Shown in pieces: positions 9,328 through 64,000 of a stretch of DNA of 64,000 nt. The translations under genes and the position numbers were made by a program. The stretch's first letter is position 1; each line of letters starts with the position of its first letter. The notes below the pieces were generated by a model, which ran no database searches, had not been told where the DNA came from, and saw only the letters and a list, made by a program, of their open reading frames with translations. Source of the DNA: an uncultured bacterium (lineage in GTDB: Bacteria; Hydrothermota; UBA3072); contig CAYQMH010000001.1 of assembly GCA_964418485.1 (NCBI GenBank), positions 29,237 through 93,236 of the forward strand. Direction: 5' to 3'.

Positions 9328-9470
9328 AGCAAATAGCGCAAATTTCGCAAATAATTTTTTAATTTGACCATTTTCTTTTCGTTTATTCGTGTAATTCATT
9401 GTTTCTCTTGGTTGTTTTGGTGTTGGGGCACTTGACTTGTTTCTGTTGTTTGATATGTTGTTGTACTGAT
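9328..9470. repeat. Copy of dispersed composite intergenic repeat (TTCGTG heptads + G-rich tract + TTGACT box)
   Basis: aatagcgcaaatttc...ttattcgtgtaattcattgtttct...ggtgttggggcacttgac is closely similar to 24100-24170 (reverse orientation), 33290-33330 and 34490-34560. Confidence 0.6.
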
Positions 9471-9500
9471 AAATATAATTTTTATAAAATGGAGGCATAA

Positions 9501-9902
9501 ATGATAGGTGATTTGACCGGCGAGGTCCTGCAGGCGCTTTTGGAAACGGTGCCCTTCGAATTCTCTGTGTTAGATGAGAACGATAAAGTTCTTGCCTGGA
9601 ACAAACATAAAACGAGAATATTTAAAAGATCTGTTGGCGTCATTGGCAGGGATGTTCGCGATTGTCATCCAAAGAAAAGCCTGGACAAAGTAGAAAAACT
9701 ACTTCTTGAGATGAAGGAAGAAAAGAGAGAAAAGGCAAGATTTTGGATTGATCTTCCTTTAGGGGAAAAGGGCAAGCAAAAGATTCTCATCGAGTATTAT
9801 GCTCTTAGAGGTAAATCGGGTAAGTATATAGGCTGCCTCGAGGTTACTCAAAACATAACCGATATTCAGTCACTGGAAGGAGAAAAGCGTCTTCTCGATT
9901 GA
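9501..9902 (+). CDS. Small PAS-fold domain protein (DUF438-like), function unknown
   Basis: The 133-aa ORF is divergent from hsp20. Its beta/alpha pattern and the RDVRDCHP motif are compatible with a PAS-like sensor domain. The product call is weak. Confidence 0.4.
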   Translation: MIGDLTGEVLQALLETVPFEFSVLDENDKVLAWNKHKTRIFKRSVGVIGRDVRDCHPKKSLDKVEKLLLEMKEEKREKARFWIDLPLGEKGKQKILIEYYALRGKSGKYIGCLEVTQNITDIQSLEGEKRLLD

Positions 9903-10050
9903 CTTTCTGGATTAAAGCTGATCTTTTGATTGTTACAGAATAAAGCTTTTAGACTTTTGCCTTTCGCTGTTAGCAAGAATTTTTTACCAATTAACCAATC
10001 AACCAATTCACTAATTTACCATTTTTGCTTTTGCGGCAAAAATTCACCCC

Positions 10051-10078
10051 TTGACAAAAATAAAATAAGGAATATATT
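10051..10078 (+). promoter_or_regulatory. Candidate sigma70 promoter TTGACA-16-TATATT for the tusA-dsrE-iscS operon
   Basis: ccccTTGACAaaaataaaataaggaaTATATTa lies about 65 nt upstream of the tusA ATG. Confidence 0.4.
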
Positions 10079-10142
10079 ATTAGTAGCTCTACTAATTCGA
10101 TAGAATTAGTAGAATAAGAAAAATTTAAAATTGGGGGTAAAA

Positions 10143-10364
10143 ATGTCTGAAATAAAAGTTGATTGTATAAATGAAACGTGTCCCGTTCCTCTTGTGGAAA
10201 CGAGGAAAGCTTTACGTAAAGTTTCTAAGGGTGATGTGGTTGAGGTTAGGGGAACGCATCAATCTTCCAAAAAGGAGATACCTATGGCAGTAAAATCGAT
10301 GGGATTGGAGCTTTTGGGGGTTGAGGAGAAAGATGGGGTGTGGTCGATAAGGATTCGTAAATAG
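10143..10364 (+). CDS. tusA: TusA-like sulfurtransferase (sulfur carrier)
   Basis: The 74-aa protein has a CPVP (CPxP) motif near the N-terminus. The start at 10143 is preceded by a GGGGG RBS. Confidence 0.8.
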   Translation: MSEIKVDCINETCPVPLVETRKALRKVSKGDVVEVRGTHQSSKKEIPMAVKSMGLELLGVEEKDGVWSIRIRK

Positions 10365-10372
10365 GAGGAGAT

Positions 10373-10792
10373 ATGAATAAAAAAGCGACTTTGATTGTTC
10401 ATAGCGGAGATTTAGATAAGGTTTATAGCGCTTTTATTATTGGTCTGGGTGCTCTTTCTATGGGTATGGATGTTTCCATGTATTTTACTTTCTGGGGTCT
10501 CGAACGCCTTAAAAAGGGAAATCTGGATAAAGCTCCGCTTTCAAGAATGAATATGTTTGGACTCGGCAGATGGATGATAAGGCGAAAGATGAGGCGGGCA
10601 GGCGTGGCTTCTCTTGATGAAATGCTCAAAGACTTTGTTGAGCTCGGAGGAAAAATACTTGCCTGTGATATGACAATGGAGATAATGGGCGTAAACAAGG
10701 AAAATTTAAGGGATGATGTAATAAGTAATTATTGCGGTGTGGGAACTTATATAAAAGAAGCAATGGAGTCCGATGTAACTTTGTTTATTTAG
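10373..10792 (+). CDS. DsrE/DsrF-like sulfur-relay family protein
   Basis: The 139-aa ORF lies immediately downstream of tusA. It has the size and hydrophobic core pattern of the DsrE/DsrF-like family, and the TusA-DsrE pairing is common. Confidence 0.55.
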   Translation: MNKKATLIVHSGDLDKVYSAFIIGLGALSMGMDVSMYFTFWGLERLKKGNLDKAPLSRMNMFGLGRWMIRRKMRRAGVASLDEMLKDFVELGGKILACDMTMEIMGVNKENLRDDVISNYCGVGTYIKEAMESDVTLFI

Positions 10793-10806
10793 AGAGGTGA
10801 TTAAAT

Positions 10807-11982
10807 ATGGATAAAAAGACGATATATTTCGACAATGCCGCATCCAGCAGGATGGATGAAAGAGTACTGGAAGCAATGAAGCCATATTTTTTTGATGTTT
10901 ATGCTGTCGCAACTTCCGAATTCGGATATTCTCTTGGAATTGAGGCAAGGGAAGCTTTAGATTCCGCGAGATTAAAAATACTTTCAGCTCTGGGGAATCC
11001 CGAAGGAAAGTTGATTTTTACTTCAGGGAGTACGGAATCGAGTAATATTGCTATTAAAGGAGTAGTCAGGAAGCTGTCAGGTAAAAAAGGAAAACACATA
11101 ATTGTATCTAAAATCGAGGATTTTCCCGTTTTGAATAGCGCAAAGTCTCTCGAAAGGGAAGGATTTAAAGTTACTTATCTAGCTGTAGACAAGTATGGCC
11201 TTGTTGATCCAGAAGAGCTTAAAGATTTGATAACAGAGGATACTATATTGGTCTCGATTCAGCACGCGAATCAGGAAATAGGAACGATTCAGGATATAAA
11301 AACAATTGGTGAAATATGCAGCAAAAATAATGTAATTTTTCATTCTGACGCTACACATTCTTTTATGAGAGTTCCTCTCGATTTGAACAAGTTAGGTGTG
11401 GATTTGCTGACGATATCCGCTCATACAATACATGGCCCCAAGGGTATTGGCGCTCTTTACGTAAGAGAAGGAGTTCCAGTAGCGAAATGGATCGACGGTG
11501 GATTTCAGGAGTTTGATTTGAGGGCCGGCGTTGAGAACATTCCCGGAGCAGTTGGTTTCGCTAAAGCAGTCGAGCTGGTAGTAGAAGAAGAAAACGAAAC
11601 ACTTAAAAATTTGCGGGACTATCTTATAGAAAAAGTCCAAAAAGAGATACCCGATACTATCTTAAATGGTCATCCTGAGAAAAGAATTCCCCATAATGCC
11701 AATATAACTTTTCACTATGTCGAAGGAGAATCCATTACACTTCATCTCGATATGAAGGGTTTTGCCGTTAGTACAGGTTCTGCATGTTTCAGTAAGTCTC
11801 TCGAGGCAAGCTATGTTATATTGGGTATAGGAGGCGACCATGAGAGAGCCCACGGCTCTGTTCGCTTTAGTTTCGGAAGATATAATAAAAAAGAAGATGT
11901 AGATGATATAGTAGAGGCTCTTAAGAATATAGTAAAACAGTTGAGAGTAATTAGCCCTCTTAAAGGAGAGAAAGTGAGGTAA
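10807..11982 (+). CDS. IscS/NifS-like class V aminotransferase (cysteine desulfurase homologue) lacking the PLP-binding lysine (HTIHGPKG instead of HKIYGPKG)
   Basis: The 391-aa ORF has an IscS fold throughout. The active-site Cys loop is present (STGSACFS). The Schiff-base Lys position is encoded by the codon aca (Thr) at 11425-11427. Confidence 0.85.
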   Translation: MDKKTIYFDNAASSRMDERVLEAMKPYFFDVYAVATSEFGYSLGIEAREALDSARLKILSALGNPEGKLIFTSGSTESSNIAIKGVVRKLSGKKGKHIIVSKIEDFPVLNSAKSLEREGFKVTYLAVDKYGLVDPEELKDLITEDTILVSIQHANQEIGTIQDIKTIGEICSKNNVIFHSDATHSFMRVPLDLNKLGVDLLTISAHTIHGPKGIGALYVREGVPVAKWIDGGFQEFDLRAGVENIPGAVGFAKAVELVVEEENETLKNLRDYLIEKVQKEIPDTILNGHPEKRIPHNANITFHYVEGESITLHLDMKGFAVSTGSACFSKSLEASYVILGIGGDHERAHGSVRFSFGRYNKKEDVDDIVEALKNIVKQLRVISPLKGEKVR

Positions 11983-11984
11983 AG

Positions 11985-12620: not shown

Positions 12621-12641
12621 AAAAACAAAAAAGGAGTAAAA

Positions 12642-13360: not shown

Positions 13361-13363
13361 GGA

Positions 13364-18055: not shown

Positions 18056-18257
18056 AACGAACCTCCTTAACTGTTTATATTAAACAAATATAATTAAGAA
18101 GACATAGATGTCAAGGCAAACGTGTGTATTTCTAAATTTTAATTGACTGCCCTCCCAAAATTTTTTCGACAACACATTGAACCTTATTTGTTACAAGCAT
18201 TATAAAAGTTTTTTACGTGATATTACTGTTCGCCAGTATTTGTAGAGTCAGAGGGAT

Positions 18258-18462
18258 TACTGTTCGAGAAAGACGTGGTCAATTTCCAAAAGTAGAGGAA
18301 ATTGCCACTCGGCTCTCGGGCTTGTCCCGTGGAATAGAAAAACTATTCGTGAGGTAAGCTATTCCACGGGATGAACTCCTTTTGAAATGCAAGCATTTCA
18401 AAAGACCATGCCCGCTCACCCTCCGAGACGCTTTCCTGGACGGCAATCCCTCTGATTCTCGC
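18258..18462. repeat. Single copies of repeat units A (ctgttcgagaaagacgtggtcaatttcc) and B (ccatgcccgctc...cgagac...tcc) also found in tandem at 28018-28440
   Basis: There is a direct sequence match to the 28.0-28.4 kb array. The region also contains palindromes cccgtggaatag...ctattccacggg and ttttgaaatgcaagcatttcaaaa. Confidence 0.6.
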
Positions 18463-18600
18463 CGACTTAATTAATAAAAAAAATGGGGGGCAGGCAAATA
18501 AATTTTAAGTCTTGACAAGCTCGGGTTGATGTCTACACTTTATAATAGTTAAAGAAAGATTATTTTCGTTGCTTGTGCTTCGGATTTTAAAGGAGTGAAA

Positions 18601-23973: not shown

Positions 23974-24039
23974 TTTTCCAAACTTACCATACTAAAGTGA
24001 TTGCCTATGTCAAGACGGCAACCCACCCCACACCAAATA

Positions 24040-24260
24040 TTAACCACAGAGGACACAGAGAAAAACAAACCCTCAGAGACCACAGAGAAAAACAACAAAT
24101 TATTTTTTTAATTAAAAACCCCAACCCCTCCAAAAAATAGAAACAACGAATTACACGAATAGCACGAATATCGAAAAGAAAAAAACTGATTTATTTGTGC
24201 AATTTGTTGTTAAAAAACGGGTGGTGCGGGTTCTTTATTTTTCCTATTCGACAATTTAAC
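24040..24260. repeat. Copy of dispersed composite intergenic repeat (CACAGAG heptads, C-rich complement of G tract, TTCGTG heptads)
   Basis: ccacagaggacacagagaaaaacaa...aaaccccaacccctcc...acgaattacacgaatagcacgaa is closely similar to 33228-33330. Its reverse complement is similar to 34490-34570. Confidence 0.65.
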
Positions 24261-24343: not shown

Positions 24344-24371
24344 TTGACAAAAACAAGAAATCATATATAAT
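24344..24371 (+). promoter_or_regulatory. Sigma70-type promoter TTGACA-16-TATAAT for rubrerythrin-sor
   Basis: accTTGACAaaaacaagaaatcataTATAATga lies about 60 nt upstream of the rbr ATG. Confidence 0.5.
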
Positions 24372-25338: not shown

Positions 25339-25514
25339 ATATTAGTGAAGTAATAAATTAAATATTAAAAATTAAAAAGCAAAATTACAGATGAAAATGC
25401 AAAATTTTTTATATTGTTCAAATACATGTAGTTTTTTTATTTTTGAACTTTAATCTGTATTTTTGCATTTTGATTTTTGAATTTAGCGGCTTCGCCGCGC
25501 ATGGAATTTTCTAC

Positions 25515-25543
25515 TTGAAATCTACTTGGATTTCGCTATAATA
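25515..25543 (+). promoter_or_regulatory. Sigma70-type promoter TTGAAA-17-TATAAT for the GH3 gene
   Basis: acTTGAAAtctacttggatttcgcTATAATag lies about 90 nt upstream of the ATG at 25634. Confidence 0.45.
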
Positions 25544-25633
25544 GATTAATAGATATGAAAATAAATTATGAATCTTTATTCCGGATTTTTAGATTTCAAT
25601 TGTCTTGTGTATTCGCAGACGGGGGTTTTAAAA

Positions 25634-28017: not shown

Positions 28018-28440
28018 GGATAACACTTTCGAAAAACCACAGTCAGTTTCCCCTGCGGTTTATTTCACAAGGAGTGCTGTTCGAGAAAGACGTGGTCAAT
28101 TTCCCCTGCGGTTTTATTCGCAAGGAGTACTGTTCGAGAAAACCAGAGTCAATTCTCCCAGCGAGAGAATTGCTCTTTACCTCTCGCTCTCACTCTTTTC
28201 GATTTTTGTAAAATCGAAAAACCGTGCCCGTTCGAGCTCCGAGATATTTTCCTGAACAGTACCCCTTACTCATTGGGCTGTTTTTGTCAAAAGTCCATGC
28301 CCGCTCGGTCTGCGAGACATTTTTTATGAAAGGCATCCCTGAACTTTTAATATTTTAAGAAAATAAAAAGGATAGTGTGCCCGCTCGGTCTGCGAGATAT
28401 TTTTCTTGAGCGGTATCCCTCACTCTTGGGTTTTAAACAA
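28018..28440. repeat. Tandem array: 3 copies of ~53-bp unit A then 3 copies of ~70-bp unit B
   Basis: Unit A is ctgttcgagaaa(g/a)ac..gtcaattt(c)ccc(tgcgg) x3 at about 28018-28180. Unit B is (c)gtgcccg(c/t)tcg...cgaga(t/c)attt...tccct x3 at about 28223-28440. Units are 70-85% identical, not CRISPR-like. Confidence 0.7.
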
Positions 28441-28530
28441 CAAAAAAATCTCTGTGCTCTCTGTGTGTTTGTTTTTTCTCTGTGTGCTCTGTGGTTTAAA
28501 AAATCGAGGTTGGGGTTGCCCTCTTGACAA
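28440..28530. repeat. Copy of composite repeat (CTCTGTG heptads + GGTTGGGGTTGCCCTCTTGACA end)
   Basis: aaatctctgtgctctctgtgtg...ctctgtgtgctctgtgg...gaggttggggttgccctcTTGACAaag, with the -35-like box at the 3' end. Confidence 0.6.
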
Positions 28531-28586
28531 AGTTGGTTTTAGTGTTACCTTTTATTAAAAAGTAACACTTGTTAAAGGGGGTATTA

Positions 28587-33217: not shown

Positions 33218-33224
33218 GATTAGC

Positions 33225-33465
33225 CACGAAGACACTAAGACACGAAGAAAAAACAACAAAATTAGTATTGTTGATTAAACCCCTCAACCCCACCAAAGAA
33301 TAGAAACAACGAATCACACGAATAGCGCAAATTTCTTTTAATTTAACTCGAAACACGAAACCCAAAACTCGAAACTTTATAATTTCACACAAAGTCACAA
33401 AGGACACAAAGTTTTTATTTATTTTTTTTGACTAGTGACCAGTGACTGGTGACTGATGACTACTT
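33225..33465. repeat. Copy of composite repeat (CACGAAG/CACAAAG heptads + C-rich tract) plus GTGACCAGTGACTGGTGAC motif
   Basis: gccacgaagacactaagacacgaag...aacccctcaaccccacc...cacacgaatagcgcaaat...cacaaagtcacaaaggacacaaag...gactagtgaccagtgactggtgactgatgact. Confidence 0.6.
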
Positions 33466-33467: not shown

Positions 33468-34265
33468 TCATTCCTGCGCTACGAATTTTTCTCTTTTTGC
33501 TTTTATATTTATTTCCTGAACTCTGTCGGCTATATCTGCGTTTATATATGTATAACCATTAAAGGTTTTGGAAGATTCTCCTGAAATGTCCAGATTTTGC
33601 AAAACCTCATCCGCAATAATCGAACCTTCTTTATTCAAGAATTCTACTGTGGCTGTAAGATTTATTGATTCTTTTTCCTGATTGTAAACAGTAAATTCCC
33701 AGAAAAATTTCCATTTTTCACTGCCTCTTTCCGTAACTTTGGTGTTGGCTCCGAAAATATTCCATGTTGGTTCTTCCAGGTCTTTTCCTGACGCTACGAT
33801 TTTACCCGAGGTGGATTTTTCCTCTTTTATTTTTCCTTCAGTTGCGGTTTTAGGCTCTAAGGAGAGTTCGATTGCATCGTCAACACCATATCCTGTAATC
33901 CTGCAAACTTTGCCCAAAGAATCACTTTCGAATCCCACGATTCCGGGTTTGTCGGCTTCTCCGGACATGTATGCTTTGTTTTCTCCCGTTTTATAAGTGA
34001 TAGGATTCTCGAAAGCTATGCCCAATTCGCGCTTGATCCATGAAACGGAACTGTTTTTCGGATAATATCCGTTTTCCCAGGAGAATTTCTTTGCTGCTTT
34101 TTCCATTATTTTCATATTTTCTTTAACGGATACGATTGTGATTGCTTCGCTGACCTGTTCATAGGATTCACCGACGACAGAAATATACGGAGACATTAAG
34201 TGCCCAAGCGCAACACCCGCAATAAAAGCCACAATGATTAAGAATACAGCGCTTCTTTTTTTCAT
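33468..34265 (-). CDS. Hypothetical membrane-anchored (N-terminal TM) extracytoplasmic protein
   Basis: The 265-aa ORF has an N-terminal TM segment (AVFLIIVAFIAGVALG). No recognisable catalytic motif was found. Confidence 0.5.
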   Translation of the reverse strand: MKKRSAVFLIIVAFIAGVALGHLMSPYISVVGESYEQVSEAITIVSVKENMKIMEKAAKKFSWENGYYPKNSSVSWIKRELGIAFENPITYKTGENKAYMSGEADKPGIVGFESDSLGKVCRITGYGVDDAIELSLEPKTATEGKIKEEKSTSGKIVASGKDLEEPTWNIFGANTKVTERGSEKWKFFWEFTVYNQEKESINLTATVEFLNKEGSIIADEVLQNLDISGESSKTFNGYTYINADIADRVQEINIKAKREKFVAQE

Positions 34266-34299: not shown

Positions 34300-34640
34300 A
34301 ATGAATTCATTCTCTTAAGTCAATGGTATTTTTGGCTACGAATAGCCACGAAGGCACTAAGATACAAAGAAAGAAACAACAAGAAAATATTATTTTTTAT
34401 AATTTCCACACCCATCCCAAAAGAGAGTAACAACAAATAGCACAAATTACACAAATGTATTGATAATGAGCATTTTTTATATAAGAATGAATCTTTTTCG
34501 TTTTATTCGTGCTATTCGTGTAATTCGTTGTTTCTATTTTGGGGAAGGGTTGAGGGTTTTAATCGGAAATATAAATTTTGTTGTTTTTCTTTGCGTTCTT
34601 TGTGGGCTTTGTGGTTCAATGATTTTTTTATATTGCTTGA
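34300..34640. repeat. Two adjacent copies of composite repeat
   Basis: The first copy is 34325-34440 (cacgaaggcactaagatacaaag...cccatcccaaaag...). The second is 34490-34625 (ttcgtgctattcgtgtaattcgttg...ggggaagggttgagggttttaa...ctttgtgggctttgtgg). Confidence 0.65.
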
Positions 34641-35395: not shown

Positions 35396-35399
35396 TTTA

Positions 35400-35660
35400 G
35401 TTGAATCGTTAAATTGTTGAATAGTTAAAACAAACGAAATTTTTTATTCGTGTTATTTGTACTATTTGTTGTTCCTCATAATTTTGGGGTTATGGGTTTT
35501 TAAAAACGATAATTAAAATGGGTTGTGGGATGTGGACTTTGTGTTCTTTGTGGTTCAATTATAATTTGTTTTTTCGAGGTTGGGTGTTTTAAACAACGAA
35601 ACATCTTTTTTTGTTTTTTTTCTCTGTGTCTCTGTATGAGATATTGGTTTTTGTTTTCGA
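35400..35660. repeat. Copy of composite repeat (TTCGTG heptads, GGGGTTATGGGTTTTTAAAA, CTTTGTG / CTCTGTG heptads)
   Basis: ttattcgtgttatttgtactatttgttg...ggggttatgggtttttaaaaacg...gaggttgggtgttttaaacaacg...ctctgtgtctctgt. Confidence 0.6.
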
Positions 35661-35915
35661 CTAGAGACTAATGACAGGTGGGCGTGTTGCCCAAAACCAA
35701 TAGAATAAAATAACACAGTTCACATTGTTATTGCGAACTCTTCTTCACGCCTTTCCACCGTGACGCAATCTCCACGTATAGCTTGCAATTAAGCCCTTTA
35801 ATTTTATCACAAGAGATTACTTCGCGAAAGTCGAGCAAGAGGACAAATTCGCAAAGACATTACTTTGGATAGCGAAAAGCCTTTCGGCAACACGCCCAGG
35901 TGACTAATGACTATT
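35661..35915. other. ~255-bp GC-richer element bounded by imperfect terminal inverted repeats (aggtgggcgtgttgcc / ggcaacacgcccaggt) and 10-bp direct repeat gactaatgac
   Basis: The element is directly readable. The interior (35695-35880) has no ORF and a higher GC content than its surroundings. It may be a MITE-like insertion or a structured RNA. Confidence 0.4.
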
Positions 35916-38936: not shown

Positions 38937-39059
38937 ATTAAGCTTTAAGTTAATTTAAGCCCGATATTCTGTCAAGTGTATTGGTGTGCCAAAATAAACC
39001 TTTTTAGCAGTACCCTCTGATTCTTACCGACGAAATTAATAAAAAAGATGATGGGGTAG

Positions 39060-39240
39060 GCAGTGTTTTGTGGATTTAGTAGTTTAATATATTTTTCTCT
39101 GTGTCTTAGTGATCTTTGTGTGAAAATAATTTGGTGGGGTGGGTTGGGTTTTAAACTTCGTATAAAAATCCTTTTTAATCTGTGTTTATCTGCGTCCTAT
39201 TCTTTCCGTGTCTTAGTGCCTTTGTGGCTGACAATACTAG
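39060..39240. repeat. Copy of composite repeat (CTCTGTG/CTTTGTG heptads + GGTGGGGTGGGTTGGGTTTTAAAC)
   Basis: ttctctgtgtcttagtgatctttgtgtg...ggtggggtgggttgggttttaaacttcg...ccgtgtcttagtgcctttgtggc. Confidence 0.6.
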
Positions 39241-39405
39241 AAAAAGGTGTTGACTTTTTTTAATTGTAATGTATTATAATTGTTAAATTATAAGCTAAAG
39301 TTTAAATAAAATAAGAAAATTAACAATCTTGAGAACCACTGAAAGTTAAAATTCGGAAAGTGGAGTAAAAGGAGATTATGCTTTTTAAGAAGCAGTAATT
39401 AAAGT

Positions 39406-46370: not shown

Positions 46371-46622
46371 ATGGCACATAAAAAAGGTGTTGGTTCTTCA
46401 CGGAATGGCCGGGATTCGAATCCCAAATATCTTGGAGTTAAAAGGTTTGGGGGAGAAGAAGTTCAGGCGGGAACTATACTGATACGTCAGAGAGGTACCA
46501 AGTATTACCCCGGTTGGAATGTTGGTAGGGGCGGAGATGATACGCTTTTCGCTTTAAAATCCGGCAAGGTGGAGTTTGGTAGTAGGCACGGTAAAAAAGT
46601 TATAAACGTAATCTCCGGATGA
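46371..46622 (+). CDS. rpmA: Ribosomal protein L27
   Basis: [16 protein letters not shown]...LGVKRFGG is the canonical L27 start. Confidence 0.95.
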
Positions 46623-46639
46623 TCAGGGTAAATATTACC

Positions 46640-46700
46640 ACAAAGATCACAAAGGACACAAAGAAATAAAATGAGATGTTGTGTTTTCTGTGATCTTTAT
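46640..46700. terminator. Hairpin + T-run formed by a repeat-family fragment (aaagatcacaaaggacacaaag...ctgtgatctttattttttt)
   Basis: An inverted repeat aaagatcaca / tgtgatcttt is followed by atttttttt. It probably terminates the rplU-rpmA transcript. Confidence 0.45.
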
Positions 46701-46751
46701 TTTTTTAAGAGTATTACATATAATTGTATTTTACTCTTTTAGAGGTTTGAT

Positions 46752-50256: not shown

Positions 50257-50261
50257 AAAAA

Positions 50262-50586
50262 ATTAAAAAACATTAAACACAGAGGACACAAAGAAATAAT
50301 TGTGTTAAAAAAGAAAAAAACACTGAGACCACAGAGAAAAAAAGAAATAAAAAATCTATGTTCTCTGTGGTGAAATATTATGGTGGGGTGTTGTGTGAGC
50401 TCTGTGCTCTCTGTATTTTGATTTGGGTGAGGAGTGGTGGGTTAAACAAAATAAAACTCTGTGTTCTCTGTGGTAAAATATTATGGTGGGGGGTTGGGTG
50501 GGCTCTGTGCTCTCCGTGTTTTCGTCGGGGTGGTGTGTGTTTTGGAAAAACAAAACAAAAATCTCTGTGTGCTCTGTGGTAAAAAA
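50262..50586. repeat. Largest composite-repeat array: ~3 tandem ~90-bp units (CTCTGTG(T)TCTCTGTGGTAAAATATTATGGTGGGGGGTTGGGTGGG...)
   Basis: Units at about 50340-50420, 50420-50500 and 50500-50586 are 80-90% identical to each other and to 61795-61890. Confidence 0.7.
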
Positions 50587-50587
50587 T

Positions 50588-51145
50588 ATGGGGAAATTTC
50601 TTTTTAAATATAGATCCTTTTTTCCGGTTCCGTATTTTTTGTTTTTATTAATTGTTATAGAATTCAGATCCTTGAGTTTCTTTCTGGGTAGTTTTATAGT
50701 TCTTTTAGGCCTTCTAATACGTTTCTTTTCGCAAGGATTCGCGGGTGATTGGATGAGAGGAAGTGAAGTTGGGGCTTTCTATATGCTTGATGAGGGAGTC
50801 TATAGTATTATGCGCAATCCTTTATACGTGGGTAATTTTTTTATCGGGTTTGGTTTTACTTTAGCTTCTAATTTTTTTCTTATTTTTCTTTTTCCTTTTT
50901 ATTCGCTTATATTCTCAATATACTATTATTTGATTATCAAAGAGGAAGAAAGTTATCTTGAGAGGAAATTCGGAGAAGAGTTTATTCAGTATCGCAAAAG
51001 CACACCTGCTTTCCTTCCGAATTTTCGCAAATGGAAAACAGGGCAATTTTTGAGTAGAAATGCCCTGCGTATGGAGAGTAGTACTTACCTTACGGTTGGT
51101 TTTATTTTTGTTTTGTTTTTGATTAAAGTTTATATTTTTGATTGA
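50588..51145 (+). CDS. Isoprenylcysteine carboxyl methyltransferase (ICMT)/phospholipid methyltransferase-family membrane protein
   Basis: The 185-aa polytopic protein has the RNPLY motif and C-terminal EE..L...FG.EF..Y pattern of the ICMT/PEMT family. The ORF-track N-terminal extension (GTG at 50483) reads through the repeat. Confidence 0.6.
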   Translation: MGKFLFKYRSFFPVPYFLFLLIVIEFRSLSFFLGSFIVLLGLLIRFFSQGFAGDWMRGSEVGAFYMLDEGVYSIMRNPLYVGNFFIGFGFTLASNFFLIFLFPFYSLIFSIYYYLIIKEEESYLERKFGEEFIQYRKSTPAFLPNFRKWKTGQFLSRNALRMESSTYLTVGFIFVLFLIKVYIFD

Positions 51146-51179: not shown

Positions 51180-52601
51180 TCACTGAAGAATGATAGCTTT
51201 CTTCCTGTATATATTATCTCCTATCTCTACTCTGACAAAGTAAATGCCGTTCTTTCCATTCCACTGGAGATTATAGCTGCCGGAAGGTCTGACTTCATTC
51301 ATTATCTTTTCCATTCTCTGCCCAAGAATGTTAAATATTTCCACCTTTACTCTTTTTTCTTCCAGAAGAGAAAAATTAATATTAATTCCGGAATTTATGT
51401 TAATAAGGGAAACTCCTTCCTCTAAAATTTCATTTTCATCATCTTCTGAACTACCGGTATATTTGATGATATAAAGACCATCGTCCCTATCCGCAACGTA
51501 GGCGAGGCTGTCGACAACGTAGGCACCGGAGGCCTCACTCCCCGTATCATAATACCCAATCTCGACCGGGCTTGTCGGGTCACTCACGTCAATGATACGT
51601 AAACCATTGAAACCGGCTGCAACGTAGGCGAGGCTGTCGACAACATAAACACCTGAGGCTTCAATCTCTGTATCATAGATACCAATCCAAAACGGGCTTG
51701 TTGGGTCACTCACGTCTATGATATGTAGACCATTGGAAGAAGCTGCAACGTAGGCGAGACTGTCGACAACGTAAACACCCTTGGCCCAAATTCCCGGATC
51801 ATAGTACCCAATTTCAACCGGATTTGAAGGGTCACTCACGTTTATGATACGTAGACCATCTGAGTTATCCGCAACGTAGGCGAGGCTGTCGACAACGTAA
51901 ACATCTTGGGCCCAACTCTCCGTATCATAATACCCAATCTCAACGGGGCTTGTCGGGTCACTTACGTCTATGATACGCAGACCATCTAAACCGGCTGCAA
52001 CGTAGGCGAGGCTGTCGATAACGTAAACGTCGGAGGTGGTGCTTCCCGTATAATAGTGGCTAATCTCAATTGGGCTTGTAGGGTCACTTACGTCTATGAT
52101 ATAAAGACCATCCCGGAAATCAGCAACATAGGCGAGACTGTCGACAGCGTAAACACCGTAGGACCAATACCCAATATCATAGTAGCCAATCTCGACCGGA
52201 CTTGTCGGATTACTCACGTCAATGATACGTAGACCATCCCAGTAACTCGCAACATAGGCGAGGCTGTCGATGACGTAGATATCCATAACTTGAGATGGAC
52301 ATCTAATTTTACCAATAGTGGTGGGATTTGAAGGGTTAGTTACGTTAAGTATCCTCAGATAGCCTCCATCTCCTATGAACACAAGACTGTCAATTGTAAA
52401 TACAGCTTCAGATGGACCGCTGAACCATCCACCTACAAGAGTACAGTCCAATGAATCACCCCTGAAGTTTTCACGGGTCCAATTCTCATTCACAGGTCTT
52501 CTATCTAACTCAATCTTTCTGTGAGATGTTTGGGCAAATAAACTGACAGTCCCGAAAAATATTAATAATACAACAATTGTATTTTGAATTAAGCGTCTCA
52601 T
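51180..52601 (-). CDS. LVIVD-repeat beta-propeller protein with T9SS C-terminal sorting domain
   Basis: It has a signal peptide and about 9 tandem ~40-aa repeats (DSLAYVA...DGLRIIDVSDPTSPVEIGYYDT). The C-terminal tail is Por-secretion-like (...GIYFVRVEIGDNIYRKKAIILQ). Confidence 0.75.
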   Translation of the reverse strand: MRRLIQNTIVVLLIFFGTVSLFAQTSHRKIELDRRPVNENWTRENFRGDSLDCTLVGGWFSGPSEAVFTIDSLVFIGDGGYLRILNVTNPSNPTTIGKIRCPSQVMDIYVIDSLAYVASYWDGLRIIDVSNPTSPVEIGYYDIGYWSYGVYAVDSLAYVADFRDGLYIIDVSDPTSPIEISHYYTGSTTSDVYVIDSLAYVAAGLDGLRIIDVSDPTSPVEIGYYDTESWAQDVYVVDSLAYVADNSDGLRIINVSDPSNPVEIGYYDPGIWAKGVYVVDSLAYVAASSNGLHIIDVSDPTSPFWIGIYDTEIEASGVYVVDSLAYVAAGFNGLRIIDVSDPTSPVEIGYYDTGSEASGAYVVDSLAYVADRDDGLYIIKYTGSSEDDENEILEEGVSLININSGININFSLLEEKRVKVEIFNILGQRMEKIMNEVRPSGSYNLQWNGKNGIYFVRVEIGDNIYRKKAIILQ

Positions 52602-52894
52602 ACCCCCTCCTTTGTTATTGAAATTAAGTTATCTTCATTTATATAAATTATTTATTTAATTTAAAACGTCAACCCTGGTTAGCCAGAAAGACACTAAGAC
52701 ACGAAGATCAAAAAATTTTAAGTTGACAATGATGTGATTTTTTTTATAATATTTTTGTATATGGAATTAACCAGAAATATTGAAATCAGTTTTTATTGCC
52801 TGACGATGGAGTGTTTATGATTAATATTAGTACATATAAACTATGTTAGCCATACGAGTAGAAACAGTAAAGTAAAAATAAACTGGAGATTTAG

Positions 52895-55704: not shown

Positions 55705-56060
55705 ATTAACAGCGTCAGATATTGAAATGTGAAAAGGAAACGTAGTCTCTAGTCTTCAGTCACCAGTCATTAGTCAAAGAAAACAAACAAAAAATCTTGT
55801 GATAATCTGTGTCAACAGGGTCAGACATTGAAATGTGAAAAGCTTTTGTGGATTCTTCGAATCCAAGTTAAATGGTTGAATAAAAAAACAGTTAAATTGT
55901 AACAACAAAATTACAATAACTACATGTCCTACATGTGAAAAAATTGGGTAGGGTTGGGTAAAATAACCTAATATTTCTTTTTTTCTCCGTGTTTCTGTGT
56001 CTCCGTGTGATGATTTTTTTGGTGGTGGGTGGTGGTGGCTTGACAAGCATTGAAAATGTA
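55705..56060. repeat. Intergenic repeat block: 29-bp direct repeat aacag(c/g)gtcaga(t/c)attgaaatgtgaaaag x2, GTCACCAGTCATTAGTC motif, composite-repeat fragment with GGTGGTGGCTTGACA
   Basis: The direct-repeat copies are at 55708-55736 and 55814-55842. ctccgtgtttctgtgtctccgtgtg...ggtgggtggtggtggcTTGACAagc lies at about 55985-56046. Confidence 0.6.
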
Positions 56061-58299: not shown

Positions 58300-58433
58300 T
58301 CCGCTAACCGCCGAGGCTGTGCCAAAACCCCCCTTTTCGCAAGTTGCAGAAAACTAAGTTCCTGTTTTTCAAAGGCTTATTTTTTAGAAATCCGTTAAAT
58401 TTGGACTTTTGGCACAGCCTCAGCTGTCAGCGG
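58300..58433. other. Large imperfect hairpin: 27-bp stem (ccgctaaccgccgaggctgtgccaaaa / ttttggcacagcctcagctgtcagcgg) with ~80-nt loop, downstream of hppA
   Basis: The inverted repeat is readable directly, with 23 of 27 positions complementary. GC is higher than in the flanks. Confidence 0.5.
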
Positions 58434-58566
58434 TCGTTTCTTAGTGCATTCGTGGCGAAGTTAAGATTTGGAGTTTTTTGGGTGGAAATTAGTTAAAAAA
58501 ACAAAATAAAAATTGGTGTTTGTGTGGGGGGCTCTGCGTTCTTTGCGTCTTTGTGTGATAATTGTT

Positions 58567-59031
58567 ATGGATTGGAAAAAAGAATTAAAGGAATTTATAG
58601 ATAATAAAACCGTAATTATGGGTATCGGCTCAACCTTAAGGTCCGATGACGGTGTGGGTGTTTTTATCGCAGAAAAACTTAAAAGTATAGGTGTTAGTAA
58701 TGTGATTATCGCTCACCAGACCCCGGAACACTGGCTTGGATTTCTAAGTAAACAGAGTTGCGAGAAGCTTTTAATAATAGATAGCGTTTTATTCGGAGGA
58801 AGAAAAGGAGAAATAAAAATTTTTGGTATTGAGGAAATAAGTGAACGATTCGGTCTTACTCATTCTTCGTCTCTACATCTTTTTTCTGATTTTGTCTCTC
58901 AGGAAGGCTCTGTGAAAGAAATAAGAATTCTTGCTATTATGCCCGAAACTGTCGAGATAGGAGAGTCTTTATCTAAGGTAGTCGCGAGAAGTGCCGGGGA
59001 GATTATCAGTTTCTTTAAGAATCTTCAATAA
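58567..59031 (+). CDS. Hydrogenase maturation endopeptidase-like protein (HycI/HybD family, peptidase A31)
   Basis: GIGSTLRSDDGVGVFIAEKL matches the GxGNxxxxDDGxG motif family. Length is about 154 aa from the ATG at 58567. The upstream TTG extension reads into the repeat. Confidence 0.55.
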   Translation: MDWKKELKEFIDNKTVIMGIGSTLRSDDGVGVFIAEKLKSIGVSNVIIAHQTPEHWLGFLSKQSCEKLLIIDSVLFGGRKGEIKIFGIEEISERFGLTHSSSLHLFSDFVSQEGSVKEIRILAIMPETVEIGESLSKVVARSAGEIISFFKNLQ

Positions 59032-59637
59032 ATCTTTCATTTTGTGTATATTGTAGGTAGCTATCCCTATTTTTGAACTGTTAGGATCGAAGAAACAAGA
59101 TTTTATACCTGATGCGTGAGCGGCTTCTATATCAAGGATTCTATCTCCGACACCCAGAGTTTCTTCTTTTTTTAATTTGTATTTATCGATAATGTAGTTG
59201 AAGCTTGTTGGGTCAGGTTTAAGAGGGAAATTTGCGTCGAAAGTAACAATTTCAATAAAATATTTATTGAAGTCATTTCTCGTTAGAAATTCATTTAAAC
59301 TTTCATATCCCCGGTGAGTTATAAGAAAATTTTCTCCACGTGCCGAAACATATTCAAGTACTTCTTCTACTCCTTCGAATGGTTTGTCTTTAAAAGTCAA
59401 TTCTCCGAAATATCTTTCTTTGTATTTTTCGGAAAATTCTTCCCTATCGATGTTAAACTCATCGGCGAGATTTTCTATACAAAAACTTATGGAAGCTTTC
59501 GCGAGGGAAAAAGCTTTTTCATAATCGTATTCAACCCCATAGTCTTTCTTTAGAACATCGATAAAAGCCCGGGTTATATCGGGGTAAGTATCGAAAAGCG
59601 TTCCGTCGAAATCCCAGATGAGGTTTCTAAAACCCAT
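58969..59637 (-). CDS. HAD-superfamily hydrolase (beta-phosphoglucomutase/phosphatase-like subfamily IA)
   Basis: It has motif I DFDGTLFDT near the N-terminus (start at 59637) and motifs III/IV GVGDRILDIEAAHASG. The ORF-track extension to 59700 is repeat read-through. Confidence 0.75.
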   Translation of the reverse strand: MGFRNLIWDFDGTLFDTYPDITRAFIDVLKKDYGVEYDYEKAFSLAKASISFCIENLADEFNIDREEFSEKYKERYFGELTFKDKPFEGVEEVLEYVSARGENFLITHRGYESLNEFLTRNDFNKYFIEIVTFDANFPLKPDPTSFNYIIDKYKLKKEETLGVGDRILDIEAAHASGIKSCFFDPNSSKIGIATYNIHKMKDLLKILKETDNLPGTSRDYLR

Positions 59638-59639
59638 GC

Positions 59640-59800
59640 CACATCTCACCAAAACCAAATGAACCACAAAGACCGCAGAGAACACAAAGTAAAACAACAA
59701 AAATCATTTTTTTGTTTAGCCCCTCCCCTAAATAGAAATAACGAATTACACAAATAGCACAAATTGTTTTAAAAACAACACCGCAAAGAACGCAGATTTT
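59640..59800. repeat. Copy of composite repeat (CACAAAG/CAGAGAACACAAAG heptads, CCCTCCCC tract, CACAAATAGCACAAA heptads)
   Basis: aaccacaaagaccgcagagaacacaaag...gcccctcccctaaatagaaataacgaattacacaaatagcacaaattg. Confidence 0.6.
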
Positions 59801-61580: not shown

Positions 61581-61734
61581 TGTTTTATATTCGATTTCTT
61601 TTTTTTCATTTACCCTTTTTGTAATTTATTCGTTTATATGTTTTGTCAATGCTTTTTTGTTTCAAAGACTTTGAAACAAGTTGAATGGTTGAGATAAAAA
61701 AAATAATGCGCTCAATTTGTGTTCTCATGTGTAT

Positions 61735-61930
61735 TATGGTTTCGGGTTTTGAGTTTCGTGTTTCGAGTTGAAAAATAAACAAAAAGGAGGGGTTGTGGGG
61801 TGTAGCTCTGTGCTCTCTGTATTTAAATTGGGGTAATGGGGTTGTGAGTAAACAAAATAAAAATCTCTGTGTCCTCTGTGGTTAATTGTTTTTGTTCTTT
61901 GTGCCTTTGTGTCTTTGTGGTTAAATACAC
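61735..61930. repeat. Copy of composite repeat, ~85% identical over ~85 bp to 50400-50485
   Basis: tagctctgtgctctctgtatttaaattggggtaatggggttgtgagtaaacaaaataaaaatctctgtgtcctctgtggttaa...ctttgtgcctttgtgtctttgtgg. Confidence 0.7.
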
Positions 61931-61984
61931 TTGAAAAGTATCGGCAATAAGTTAAATTTAACAAAAGGAACAAAAGGAGGGAAA

Positions 61985-63760
61985 ATGTACAGAACAATTA
62001 TAATATTTTTAATATCCTTTGTTTTATTCGCAGAAGAGCCGGCTGTTTCTCCGCCTGTTTTATTGCAAGTCGAGGATTTTGGGGCTGTTAGCGATGATAA
62101 AATTTTGGATACAGAAGCTGTAAATAAGGCAATCGATTCCTGTTCTGCTCTTATTAACGGAACAGTTGTTTTTTCTAAGGGAACGTATCTATGCGGATCC
62201 ATTCGTTTGAAAAGCAATGTGGCGCTTCAAGTCGAAAAAGAAGCGAAAATACAGGCTGCCCCAAAGGGCATTGGGGCTTTCGATCCTCCTGGAGATAATT
62301 TATGGTATAAGTATCAGGATTTCGGGCAGAGTCATTTCCATAACGCTCTTGTTTGGGGAGATAGTGTTGAAAATATAACTATAAAAGGAGAAGGTGTAAT
62401 AAGCGGAACCGCATCTCTTTATAGGAACTCCGGAACCGGAGAAGGCGATAAGGCTATTTCGCTTAAGTTATGCAAAAATGTTGAAATAAAGGATATACTT
62501 ATCACCGACGGTGGATATTTGGCCATTCTGGCTACGAGATGTGATAGTATAAATATACATGATGTGAAAGTAAAAACCGGGATGAATGGTATAAGCCTTG
62601 TAGGTAGTAATAATGTTGAGTTGAAAAATTGTGAAGTGGAAGCTGGCAATGATGGAATTTCACTTAAATCAGATTATTCTTTAGGTCGCAAGCTAAATAG
62701 TAAAGATATTGAAATAAATAGTTGTGTAATTTCCGCGGGTGGTAATGCCTTGCAGCTTGGTCCGGAAACGGTCGGTGATTTTAAAAATGTGCAGATTTTA
62801 AATATCACAATAGAAAGAGCTGGTAATGTGGGTATAAGTGTTACTTCAAGTCATGGGGCTGTAGTTGACGGGGTTAATATTCAAAATGTTACTATGGAGA
62901 GTGTTGCTGTTCCTTTCTTTATTAATCTATCTAAAATTACAGGTGGATCTACTGATTCTCCCACCTTTGGTGATATTAGAAATCTCAGAATAAGTAATGT
63001 TGTTGTTAGAGATGCTTATGGCTACGGCAGTGGATGGGATTTTGCCAGTACAATTATGGGGAAATCCGGCAGGATGCTTGAGAATATTGTTCTCGAAAAC
63101 ATGAGAATGACTTACAAAGGAGGAGATTTGTCTTACCTTGGATTACAGGAAGATCCTGCTAAAATAAATCTTCCTGAAATAGAAGATTACAGGGCGGAGA
63201 GATATGGTCTCAGGCCGGCTTACGGCCTCTATTGCCGCCATATAAAGGACTTGAAAATACGAAATGTTTCCGTCGATTTCGAAGAAGAACACTCCAGACC
63301 GGCGATGATTTTGTCGGATATCGAAGGGGCGGTGATAAATCGATTTTATGCGGAAAGGTCGGCTATCAGAAATTATGATATAATCTTAGATAATGTTAGT
63401 GATTTTATGATAACCGGAAGTCCCGGGGTAGTGTACATAGAGAAAGAGGATTTTGTTCCTTTAGATAGTTTTAATGTTTCCGCTTTGCCTAATCCTAATT
63501 CGCAAGAAGTAGCCGCAAAACTTGGGGCTGGTATCCCGCCGACTTTGCTTTCGGATTTACCTATTGAGGTGATTGAAAAAATAAAGAAAGAGCTTGGAAT
63601 ACCTCCTACGATGCTAAGGGTTTTAGTGGGCGGGCAGATTGAAAAGGAAGAGAAAGGCGGAAAAGTTGTATATAATATCGAGGCCGAAAATACAAAAGGC
63701 GAAAAATACAGACTTAAAATTCAGAAAGACGGGAGCTTGTTGAGTAAGGAAAAAATTTAA
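61985..63760 (+). CDS. GH28-like (polygalacturonase/rhamnogalacturonase-type) parallel beta-helix glycoside hydrolase with extra C-terminal domain
   Basis: It has a signal peptide and a QVEDFGAVSDDKILDTEAVNKAID N-terminus typical of GH28. Beta-helix repeat motifs (NCEVEAGNDGISLKS, GGNALQLG) are present. RBS aaaggaggg precedes the ATG at 61985. Confidence 0.6.
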   Translation: MYRTIIIFLISFVLFAEEPAVSPPVLLQVEDFGAVSDDKILDTEAVNKAIDSCSALINGTVVFSKGTYLCGSIRLKSNVALQVEKEAKIQAAPKGIGAFDPPGDNLWYKYQDFGQSHFHNALVWGDSVENITIKGEGVISGTASLYRNSGTGEGDKAISLKLCKNVEIKDILITDGGYLAILATRCDSINIHDVKVKTGMNGISLVGSNNVELKNCEVEAGNDGISLKSDYSLGRKLNSKDIEINSCVISAGGNALQLGPETVGDFKNVQILNITIERAGNVGISVTSSHGAVVDGVNIQNVTMESVAVPFFINLSKITGGSTDSPTFGDIRNLRISNVVVRDAYGYGSGWDFASTIMGKSGRMLENIVLENMRMTYKGGDLSYLGLQEDPAKINLPEIEDYRAERYGLRPAYGLYCRHIKDLKIRNVSVDFEEEHSRPAMILSDIEGAVINRFYAERSAIRNYDIILDNVSDFMITGSPGVVYIEKEDFVPLDSFNVSALPNPNSQEVAAKLGAGIPPTLLSDLPIEVIEKIKKELGIPPTMLRVLVGGQIEKEEKGGKVVYNIEAENTKGEKYRLKIQKDGSLLSKEKI

Positions 63761-63764
63761 AAAA

Positions 63765-64000
63765 ATTACTAACCACAGAGACCACAGAGATTTTATTTTG
63801 TTAATACCTCCCGACTACCTCCCCGATTAAAACACGGAGAGCACAGAGTTTACACAACCCCACACTATAGTATTTTATCACAAAGAACACAGAGTTTTCA
63901 TTTCTTTTTTTTCTCTTTGTTTTATTAATTGAGTGCGGTGATTGGGTTTTAAACAACAAAATTTATTTTTTCTCTGTGGTCTCTGTGTGTTTGTTCTTTT
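63765..64000. repeat. Copy of composite repeat (reverse-orientation CACAGAG heptads, then forward GGTGATTGGGTTTTAAACAACAAAA...CTCTGTGGTCTCTGTG)
   Basis: aaccacagagaccacagagattttattttgtt...cacggagagcacagag...gagtgcggtgattgggttttaaacaacaaaatttattttttctctgtggtctctgtgtg. Confidence 0.65.

Follow-up and report, generated by a model that had tools for sequence, protein, structure and literature searches.

Mosaic intergenic repeats with heptad arrays in an uncultured WOR-3 bacterium and their relation to REP, STRR and Correia elements

Extragenic repeats and the spacers of the window

Several families of small extragenic repeats have been described in bacteria. The repetitive extragenic palindromic (REP) sequences of Proteobacteria, with their BIME and REPIN arrangements, lie densely and in both orientations outside genes as mosaics of a few short motifs; their inverted pairs form hairpins, no target-site duplication (TSD) accompanies them, they are somewhat in excess between convergent genes and they occasionally act as terminators or stabilizers. 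The short tandemly repeated repetitive (STRR) sequences of heterocystous cyanobacteria and the heptamers of Xanthomonas and Nostoc are intergenic tandem arrays of heptanucleotides, often in inverted pairs, with unit numbers that vary among relatives, G-rich variants and no established function. The Correia elements (CREE/NEMIS) of Neisseria are small, non-coding, gene-adjacent and ended by inverted repeats, and a few copies put a −35-like box before a gene. BOX of Streptococcus pneumoniae and MIRU of mycobacteria are modular as well, with a variable number of internal units and short spacers; they often abut stop or start codons and vary in copy number between strains and, to our knowledge, each is confined to one genus. 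Here we report on a repeat family in the intergenic DNA of a 64-kb stretch of contig CAYQMH010000001.1 from an uncultured bacterium (the window; ~39% G+C, genes mostly on the + strand), of which 7.4 kb (11.6%) is intergenic.

The elements of the window form a genuine, dispersed, non-coding intergenic repeat family. Heptad pairs of the form CTYTGTGNNCTYTGTG (CTYTGTG-NN-CTYTGTG, at most one mismatch) occur 25 times where 0.03 are expected, and pairs of the form ATTYGTGNNATTYGTG (ATTYGTG-NN-ATTYGTG) 12 times where 0.11 are expected; 42 of the 43 pairs of the heptad class are intergenic and 14 of 22 spacers contain at least one. All 15 intergenic regions named in a preliminary description, made from the sequence alone, hold related modules in both orientations and, as stated there, the elements have no coding capacity. 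They can be aligned over stretches of 34-100 nt at 78-91% identity (79-84% for stretches of 90-100 nt, up to 87-91% for shorter ones), copies being 62-91% identical over 34-104 nt with modules shuffled between them. No single consensus of 100-330 bp underlies the copies; instead, modules are shuffled into mosaics. The modules are not confined to the window, since spacers of the same genome beyond it (locus L307, of which the overlap is 100% identical) bear them, as do related contigs. Chance similarity of low-complexity sequence might be suspected from the A/T-richness of the spacers and the weakness of some two-copy families of the repeat finder, but the enrichment, the intergenic position of the pairs, the long alignable stretches and a permuted heptad of the same composition, which had 0 matches in viral contigs, leave it virtually no credibility, and we consider it refuted by the shuffling controls. 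Across the window 0 Rfam matches were obtained at gathering thresholds, and the three obtained at E up to 1 were weak, unrelated and located outside the repeat elements. The literature searched on heptameric and STRR repeats and on the literal motifs gave general background only and no account of CTCTGTG arrays, which is not proof of novelty; the earlier statement that the family cannot be assigned to a known one is upheld.

The heptad arrays contain two to five copies with 0-2 bases between heptads; within arrays these bases vary freely, and the variants of the heptads themselves are mostly C-to-T at CpG (ATTCGTG to ATTTGTG, CTTCGTG to CTTTGTG). Arrays of CTCTGTG, CTTTGTG, CTTCGTG or CTTAGTG have a period of 8-9 and usually end in ...GTGGTTAA or ...GTGGCTAA, and the CTYNGYG heptad class often terminates in ...GGTTAA. 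Arrays of ATTCGTG or ATTTGTG have a period of 9 and the end ATTCGTTGTTTCTAT. A period of 7 is found for GTTTCGN arrays, which end in GTTAA, and for GACTNNT and AGTCNNN arrays; in the window such arrays lie at 33345-33368, 33426-33446, 55756-55776 and 61738-61758, the dominant arrays being those of period 8-9 with variable spacers and merely 2-5 units. Arrays are combined with G-rich blocks (e.g., GGGGTTGGGGTTTTTAA) and with A-rich blocks (e.g., AAACAAAATAAAAAT) or their T-rich complement. Type I arms of ~115 nt have the order ATTCGTG x3, G block, A/T block, CTCTGTG-type pair (24172-24035, 33335-33220, 34456-34342 and 59764-59651 on the − strand; 34505-34627 and 35446-35567 on the + strand), and type II units of ~103 nt form a tandem run at 50341-50546, lie inverted at 63817-63911 and stand alone at 61790-61890. 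Arms and units thus occur single, in tandem or head-to-head, and the arm-bearing divergent spacers (9.3, 24.1 and 34.4 kb) have two head-to-head arms in all three cases.

Judged by this architecture, the closest analogues may be the REP/BIME mosaics and the STRR heptamers of cyanobacteria. The traits given above for the REP, STRR and Correia families are those that the elements of the window share with each, as are the modular build, the variable unit number, the placement in short spacers and the copy-number variation of BOX and MIRU, and the resemblance to REP/BIME noted in the preliminary description is borne out by the mosaic build, the hairpin-capable inverted pairs and the extragenic position. 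However, the unit is a tandem of heptads with free 2-nt spacers that ends in GGT(T/A)A, not an imperfect palindrome of 20-40 nt with 5' GTAG; the host belongs to WOR-3, not to the Proteobacteria; no RAYT (Y1 transposase) gene was found in the 64-kb window or the fetched flanks; and the core heptad array spans phyla, whereas REP sequences are species-specific. Unlike STRR sequences, the arrays mostly have a period of 8-9 (heptad plus variable spacer), consist of 2-5 units of other sequence and are embedded in larger mosaics of G and A/T blocks, and the CTCTGTG type is not restricted to one lineage. The units of BOX (45 nt) and MIRU (40-100 nt) are unrelated in sequence to the heptad family. Correia elements differ in that our elements have no TA or other TSD, no fixed length or consensus, and native promoters in the cases tested; an IS630-like parent was not found in the loci examined. 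The heptamers of Xanthomonas and Nostoc read GGGAATC and GGGGAYT (PMC4692102), and a passage of that paper citing Mrazek (2007) states that heptameric repeats are over-represented in bacteria. A TGGGATT TGGGATA TGGGATT array seen in locus L304 of a related species (reverse strand, ~4920-4950, the ortholog of ~35.45 kb) resembles these GGGAATC/GGGGATT heptamers (PMC4692102). Our preferred reading, to which we lend slightly more belief than doubt, is that the elements constitute a REP/BIME-like, non-coding mosaic repeat system of a WOR-3 bacterium, i.e., filler DNA of fast turnover and not a single transposon.

Promoters and spacers in related genomes

The gene content of the window, with a type IX secretion system (T9SS) sorting domain, a TonB-dependent receptor, a Na+-pyrophosphatase and GH3, GH94 and GH130 proteins, points to the Fibrobacteres-Chlorobi-Bacteroidetes (FCB) group, and homologues of the protein encoded at 33468-34265(−), 76% and 51% identical to it, carry the name 'candidate division WOR-3 bacterium'. 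About three contigs near-identical to the window come from JGI metagenomes; no tRNA or tmRNA was found within the window. Promoter-like sites of the sigma-70 type (TTGACA/TATAAT) and AGGAGG ribosome sites accompany its genes. Promoters and spacers were compared with those of five related WOR-3 loci that keep the gene order from BglX to GltD (identity of the reference protein 86% in L302, 80% in L303, 78% in L304, 76% in L305 and 66% in L129), a comparison across species that covers one genome neighbourhood.

In this neighbourhood, the elements occupy the dispensable parts of spacers, namely from a stop codon to the next −35 box, between convergent stop codons and between divergent −35 boxes, and turn over fast beside conserved promoters and leaders. 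The strong sigma-70-like sites at 24344, 34637, 35944, 39250, 52723 and 34323(−) lie between arrays and genes, not within arrays. The divergent promoters at 34323(−) and 34637(+) are both conserved in the relatives, homology ends just upstream of each −35 box, and the spacer between the two (34.3 to 34.64 kb) is non-homologous in every species: over 34.3-34.7 kb the window has G-type arms, L302 a GT/AC heptad hairpin, L303 and L305 AT-type head-to-head arms, and L304 GTCAC heptads, a reversed G block and CACAAAG. Likewise, the promoter (35944+) of the gene at 36.05 kb is conserved in L303-L305, and the spacer between the methyltransferase and TonB_C genes measures 74 nt in L302, with the promoter only; in L303 and L304 modules precede the same promoter and bring the spacer to 474 and 543 nt, respectively. 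In L302 and L305, CTCTGTG arrays are lacking at the spacer before the receptor gene, yet the TTGACA (28524) and its leader are kept; this box belongs to the receptor gene itself as a promoter-like site. Because promoters are conserved and spacers replaced, we conclude that in the cases tested the elements fill and expand the dispensable part of the spacer without supplying a promoter; in general, they seem not to donate promoters.

Of the earlier idea that the elements supply promoters, one candidate survives, i.e., the copy at 24013(−), which is the only one with a repeat-borne −35 box and a usable −10 (TTGACA-16-TATGGT). The GGTTGCC-type end said to be shared by copies before genes was found at two of the four places: GGTTGCCNTCTTGACA occurs exactly in the window only at 24008-24023(−) and 28514-28529(+), and is absent at 56.04 and 9.43 kb, where the copies share merely the G block followed by CTTGAC(A/T). 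Between the TTGACA at 28524 and the receptor start codon lies a small hairpin (28542-28568, GTGTTACC...GTAACAC) without a riboswitch match; its retention in all relatives (L302, L303 and L305) suggests a leader or operator. In the intergenic DNA of this uncultured FCB-group (WOR-3) bacterium, promoters and leaders stand as conserved islands amid rapidly exchanged modular filler.

Presence and absence at orthologous spacers, as in the 74-nt spacer against those of 474 and 543 nt, agrees with promoter-carrying miniature inverted-repeat transposable elements (MITEs) of Correia type, to which the preliminary description had compared the family, but is also expected of repeats that are not transposons. 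Such MITEs would be non-autonomous cut-and-paste elements with terminal inverted repeats (TIRs) and outward TTGACA ends that make promoters. The inverted heptad arrays are indeed TIR-like in standing outermost, in the head-to-head arms of the window and in the 38% of arrays with an inverted partner among the matches listed from other genomes (see below), and GGTTGCCNTCTTGACA occurs twice, with a plausible −10 at the 24013(−) copy. However, the arms are imperfect with mostly non-complementary 2-nt spacers, and the TSD that should accompany them was absent from all 84 hairpin elements across the fetched loci: at 4 nt, the flanks of 3 elements were direct repeats only and those of 10 palindromic only, with 10 elements showing both patterns and 61 showing neither; at 2 nt, none was direct-only and 4 had TA in common, the first two bases extending the palindrome. 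Duplication of a TA or TTAA target was rejected; with the flank left unforced, GT follows the last heptad in 56% and variable A-rich sequence comes next, so that TTAA is not obligatory. The mosaic copies, 62-91% identical, offer neither a sharp consensus nor near-identical members, no transposase gene lies between inverted arrays in the loci examined (the open reading frames (ORFs) between distant arrays in L081 and L189 encode an OLD-family nuclease and unknown proteins), the orientation of arrays relative to promoters is inconsistent (e.g., reversed at 52679-52710) and the tested promoters are native and conserved without elements. We therefore regard a MITE origin as improbable. In its favour, a true TIR element nearby, at 35680-35897, shows that elements do transpose in this genome. 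It has perfect 12-nt inverted ends (GGGCGTGTTGCC...GGCAACACGCCC) with AGGT on both sides and splits a GACTAAT array whose ortholog in L304 is continuous, and thereby illustrates the appearance of a genuine MITE insertion in this lineage; a related end is also present in L152/L154.

Under the preferred reading of a REP/BIME-like mosaic, the elements would be tolerated or selfish filler that is gained, lost, expanded and replaced. Their spread, which leaves no TSD, would most likely combine slipped-strand expansion with ectopic gene conversion among arrays or with template switching, unless a putative trans-acting enzyme of the REP type mobilizes them. Effects in cis would be incidental: hairpin copies such as the one behind rpmA may serve as terminators, and arrays may buffer or insulate promoter-upstream DNA. 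Evolution of arrays in situ is supported by the GTTGAATN array behind the RpiA stop codon, whose unit number is 4 or 5 at one and the same position in three species (the window, L304 and L305), by the retention of the CGAAAC array in L129 and by the C-to-T changes at CpG. Several observations nevertheless weigh against this reading. No donor or recipient event, enzyme or excision footprint was seen in the loci examined. The CGAAAC and GTTGAATN arrays and a CGGTCTT array (L303/L304) are conserved at orthologous sites between genes of ~76% DNA identity, which hints at function or homogenization instead of neutral filler. Four G blocks abut −35-like boxes (9433, 24013−, 28524 and 56040), leaving room for a promoter-proximal role. 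Furthermore, the heptads are sequence-specific (at least 120 matches versus 0 for the permuted heptad) and common to many phyla, with free spacers, a pattern that is typical of protein recognition and unexplained by slippage alone, and the cross-species comparison covers the one neighbourhood.

Heptad arrays in other phyla and in viral contigs

The exact motif TCTCTGTG-NN-CTCTGTGGTWA was found at no fewer than 120 loci of about 20 phyla in the genome collection, where by our own calculation ~9 would be expected by chance in 596 Gb, both strands. Among the matches listed, to which the counts of this paragraph refer, are Planctomycetota, Acidobacteriota, Chlamydiota, Verrucomicrobiota, Chloroflexota, Bacteroidota (including cultured Pedobacter and Labilibaculum), Cyanobacteria (Nostoc, Microcoleus), Nitrospirota, Cloacimonadota, WOR-3/Stahlbacteria, Omnitrophota, Elusimicrobiota, Armatimonadota and others; Pedobacter rhizosphaerae DSM 18610, Labilibaculum euxinus A4 and Microcoleus anatoxicus PTRS2 are cultured carriers. 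A third heptad lies upstream in about 60%, the flanks have the consensus T-rich, (CTCTGTG-NN)x3, then GTTAAT, and about 87-89% of the matches are outside long ORFs. An inverted partner is present 4-180 nt upstream of 44 of the 115 CTCTGTG arrays (38%), with the GGTWA ends outermost. Bacterial arrays between tandem genes show no bias in orientation (24 versus 25), and convergent spacers (23) outnumber divergent ones (12). The neighbours of arrays in other phyla are unrelated, which disposes of a specific downstream gene.

At least 120 matches to the CTCTGTG pattern were also found in IMG/VR viral contigs, in which the related CTTTGCG heptad has 23; the permuted control excludes a generic tandem-repeat artefact as the source of the cross-phylum matches. 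In 85 hairpins, heptad positions are complementary in 91% and spacer positions in 48%, and inverted pairs fold strongly, with z = −8.3 at L008 and z = −4.7 for a ~104-nt tandem unit of Pedobacter. The latter is present in at least six roughly tandem copies in P. rhizosphaerae DSM 18610 (L074:1190-1950), each with a left arm of CACCGAG/CACTAAG/CACGGAG/CACTGAG, a T run and a right arm of CTCTGTG/CTTTGTG ending in GGTAAAAT.

Neither slippage nor lineage-specific evolution of REP type predicts the occurrence of a 21-nt heptad-array motif in many phyla and phage contigs. It is conceivable, and we put it forward tentatively, that the CTCTGTG-type arrays of ~20 phyla and phages represent a single sequence-specific class of elements that a conserved trans-acting factor recognizes or mobilizes, with the consensus T-rich, (CTCTGTG-NN)2-4, CTCTGTG-GT-(T/A)A, often arranged as TWACC(ACAGAG..)n, loop, (..CTCTGT)nGGTWA. 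Such a factor could be an enzyme resembling REP/RAYT or a protein that binds DNA or RNA. The WOR-3 mosaics would then be the elaboration of one lineage, and standard repeat finders would have missed the class for its shortness and degeneracy, leaving it undescribed. If a common factor does recognize the arrays, they would amount to a pan-bacterial repeat system with a scope comparable to that of REP/RAYT.

The sequence-specific but spacer-tolerant conservation across phyla argues that a protein recognizes the heptads, which keeps alive both such an element class and a function for the host. According to the latter explanation, heptads ~9 bp apart, often in inverted sets, would be multimeric binding arrays for a nucleoid-associated protein, an insulator, a global regulator or, if transcribed, an RNA-binding protein, and the mosaics would organize promoter-upstream and gene-end DNA. 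The conserved heptad positions beside variable 2-nt spacers, the strict specificity (including the 23 matches of CTTTGCG), the range of carriers, the GGT end of arrays near gene boundaries, the arrays conserved at orthologous sites and the G blocks that abut the −35 boxes of four genes are all consistent with it. We nevertheless think it unlikely, because the heptads are homogeneous within arrays but differ between them (CTCTGTG, ATTCGTG, GTTTCGN, GACTNNT), which would be needless for one protein, whole spacers are swapped between close species with the adjacent promoters unchanged, the 74-nt spacer of one species is empty where two others are filled, the arrays have no preferred orientation relative to genes, and no candidate protein was identified.

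A role at the RNA level, as terminators, stabilizers of 3' ends, processing sites or leaders for translation initiation, is suggested by the copy after rpmA (46371-46622). This element (46637-46706, +) consists of a CACAAAG x3 arm, a partial complementary arm and a U run, and its stem (46642-46698; −22.9 kcal/mol, z = −4.15), followed by the U run UUUAUUUUUUU, is a good intrinsic terminator, in agreement with the preliminary description; a simple terminator consensus scan missed it, which we attribute to its 17-nt loop exceeding the 3-8-nt limit of the scan. The strong hairpins of L008 and Pedobacter, the over-representation of convergent spacers and, among the matches listed, the viral arrays between tandem genes, with CACAGAG in the mRNA in 32 versus 11 cases, point the same way, as does one group of GC-rich contigs in which the array separates a TAA stop from the start codon that follows. 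Much of the phage bias, however, stems from this one group of related contigs, bacterial arrays have no orientation bias, A runs rather than U runs follow most hairpins, and many copies lie upstream of promoters and are probably not transcribed. Moreover, single arms do not fold significantly (z = 0.1 and 1.3, the former, at 0.11, being the 24008-24172 arm); the paired arms at 34335-34632 form one long imperfect hairpin (z = −6.2). As a general explanation, a role in RNA is accordingly improbable, the rpmA copy notwithstanding.

In the group of G+C-rich phage contigs (L162, L173, L192, L210, L269 etc.) the same composite precedes at least three genes: a TAA stop, CC-(ACAGAGNNC)x3, (CTTAAAA)x3-4 and ATG, with CACAGAG always in the mRNA sense and the number of heptad units differing among contigs. 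The ATTCGTG-NN-ATTCGTTGTTTCTAT module was found in 36 metagenome stretches, G+C-rich organisms included. At ten G+C-rich loci (L124, L128, L130, L133, L136, L144, L147, L150, L157 and L158) an ATTCGTG-NC-ATTCGTTGTTTCTAT array is followed by a conserved sequence of ~110 nt (..GTCCTTATCTGGTCCGGACTTGC...ATCTGGAAA.GATTTTCAGTTGTTGCGAGTTAGCA..GCAGAT), and at L128, L132, L140, L151 and L153 it is preceded by an GGTTGCGGCCGAAGGCCGCGCTGGG hairpin; either of the two could represent an element of its own or a structured RNA.

Some known signals were considered and set aside. TTAACCACA agrees with the DnaA box at 8 of 9 positions, but presumably is not one, given the mismatch at the conserved T4 and the misfit of the 9-nt period; integron attC, dif/Xer, Chi, boxA and the CtsR heptad boxes we take to have a partial resemblance of letters only; and GGTAAAAT ends could, we assume, be extended −10 promoters in a minority of cases, but half of the arrays face the 3' ends of genes. 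The G-rich tracts had been described as G-quadruplex-prone; a motif scan found no canonical motif (four runs of at least three G, 1-7 nt apart) inside elements, the only one in the window being genic (31415), and the three-run tracts in the elements at 34541, 39136, 50488 and 55946 indicate a weak proneness.

Individual elements and other repeats of the window

In the divergent spacer at 9328-9432 a partial head-to-head pair comprises a reversed CAAAT-type array (9328-9352), forward ATTCGTG/ATTCATT heptads (9386-9410) and a G-rich block that abuts TTGACT (9433); it forms inverted repeat I21 with 24131-24161. The type I arm at 24008-24172(−), of repeat families D3, D7, D8 and I3, reads ATTCGTG x3, TTGTTTCTATTTT, G block, A/T block, two CTCTGTG pairs, GGTTAA, G block and GGTTGCCGTCTTGACA. 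Head-to-head with it lies a short forward arm (24193-24240, +) of an ATTTGTG pair and a G-rich block, with the native promoter at 24344 downstream. An AT-type member at 25339-25567, absent from the earlier list, consists of two inverted TTTTGAAYTTTGATTTGTAATTTTNCATTTTGAT-like arms and was compared by eye with L126, L129, L139, L155, L303, L305 and L307; modules of this AT-rich family (TTTTGAAYTTTGATTTGTAATTTTNCATTTTGATATTTGATTTTT, often ending in TTAGCGGCTTYGCCGCG) form head-to-head arms and follow ATTCGTG arrays in relatives. The element at 28426-28513(+) consists of a G block/TTTTAAAC, an A block, two CTCTGTG pairs and a G block, and abuts the TTGACA (28524) of the TonB-dependent receptor gene.

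The convergent spacer at 33220-33462(−) combines a reversed type I arm (33220-33335), NCGAAAC x4 (33342-33385), CACAAAG x3 (33389-33411) and GACTAGT-type x4 (33431-33462), the last abutting the stop codon of the − strand gene; its L129 ortholog keeps the reversed arm and the CGAAAC array (~80% identical by eye), the other modules being missing. Two head-to-head type I arms at 34342-34627 (34342-34456 on −, 34505-34627 on +; I1, I3, I20) fill the spacer between the conserved divergent promoters 34323(−) and 34637(+). Behind the RpiA stop codon, the element at 35399-35679(+) begins with the GTTGAATN x4 array (35399-35431) and continues with a type I arm (35446-35567), a G block and CTCTGTG pair (35568-35640) and the start of the GACTAAT array (35658-35679). 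Mixed CTTAGTG/CTTTGTG/ATCTGYG heptads and the G block GGTGGGGTGGGTTGGGTTTTAAAC make up 39066-39233(+), upstream of the native promoter at 39250 (I25 with 33222-33251).

Reversed CACAGAG pairs (50268-50339) open the element at 50258-50592(+), followed by ~2.5 tandem type II units of ~103 nt in the order A block, CTCTGTG pair-GGT, G block, CTCTGTG pair, G block (D4, D10 at 78%, I2 at 84%, I4). The array TTAGCC-(CACNAAGA)x3 of period 8 at 52679-52710(−) (D6, 86% to 33220-33256) stands upstream of the native 12/12 promoter at 52723. At 55746-56039 (I11), AGTCNNN heptads (55746-55790) are followed by a CTACATG pair with G block (55920-55965) and by CTCCGTG/TCTGTG heptads with a G block (55986-56039) that abuts TTGACA (56040). 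The element at 58437-58557(+) (D14) is composed of a CTTAGTG/ATTCGTG pair, an A block, a G block and CTCTGCG/CTTTGCG/CTTTGTG heptads, and ends 10 nt ahead of ATG 58568. A reversed type I arm of CACAAAG/CGCAGAG heptads, A/T block, G block and CACAAAT x2-3, followed by a CGCAAAG/CGCAGAT pair, is present at 59651-59795(−) (I5, I8 at 89%, D7 at 87%). Upstream of the gene at 61931, 61739-61925(+) holds GTTTCGN x4 (61739-61772), a type II unit (61790-61890) and CTTTGTG x3 of period 8 (61895-61919) (I14 at 91%, D16 at 78%, D4 at 84%). Finally, ~1.5 inverted type II units lie directly behind a stop codon at 63764-64000(−), with a forward G block, A block and CTCTGTG pair, and continue past the end of the window (I2 at 84%, I4, I7, I13, I17).

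Repeat filler of this kind matters for gene calling, promoter prediction and the assembly of metagenome-assembled genomes. Mechanical ORF starts enter repeat DNA at 55989, 58513, 58969-59700, 28569 and 50483; the actual starts are likely ATG 56122 (pyrophosphatase, of which the profile match begins at residue 47 of the ORF), ATG 58568 and ATG 28587, and ORFs 58969-59700(−) and 50483-51145(+) share DNA with repeat units in their N-terminal parts.

Unrelated to the heptad elements is a second family of repeats, without an Rfam match, at 18248-18490, 28042-28420 and 39013-39055. Its units, TCAAAAGNCCATGCCCGCTC..CGAGA..TTTC and ..CTGTTCGAGAAAGACGTGGTCAATTTCC, stand in 2-3 tandem copies before two genes, that of the TonB-dependent receptor and the one at 18595; the family recurs in the orthologous spacer upstream of the receptor gene in L302 (reverse strand, ~6900-7250), not in L305. 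Just after the pyrophosphatase gene lies a long imperfect hairpin (58301-58433; 58-nt arms with 71% complementarity and a gap of 17 nt), whose sequence has no relation to that of the heptad family. The 6-7 tandem copies of a 126-nt repeat at 51418-52359, 68-83% identical and inside ORF 51180-52601(−), encode the LVIVD beta-propeller repeats of a T9SS-sorted protein and are thereby explained as protein repeats.

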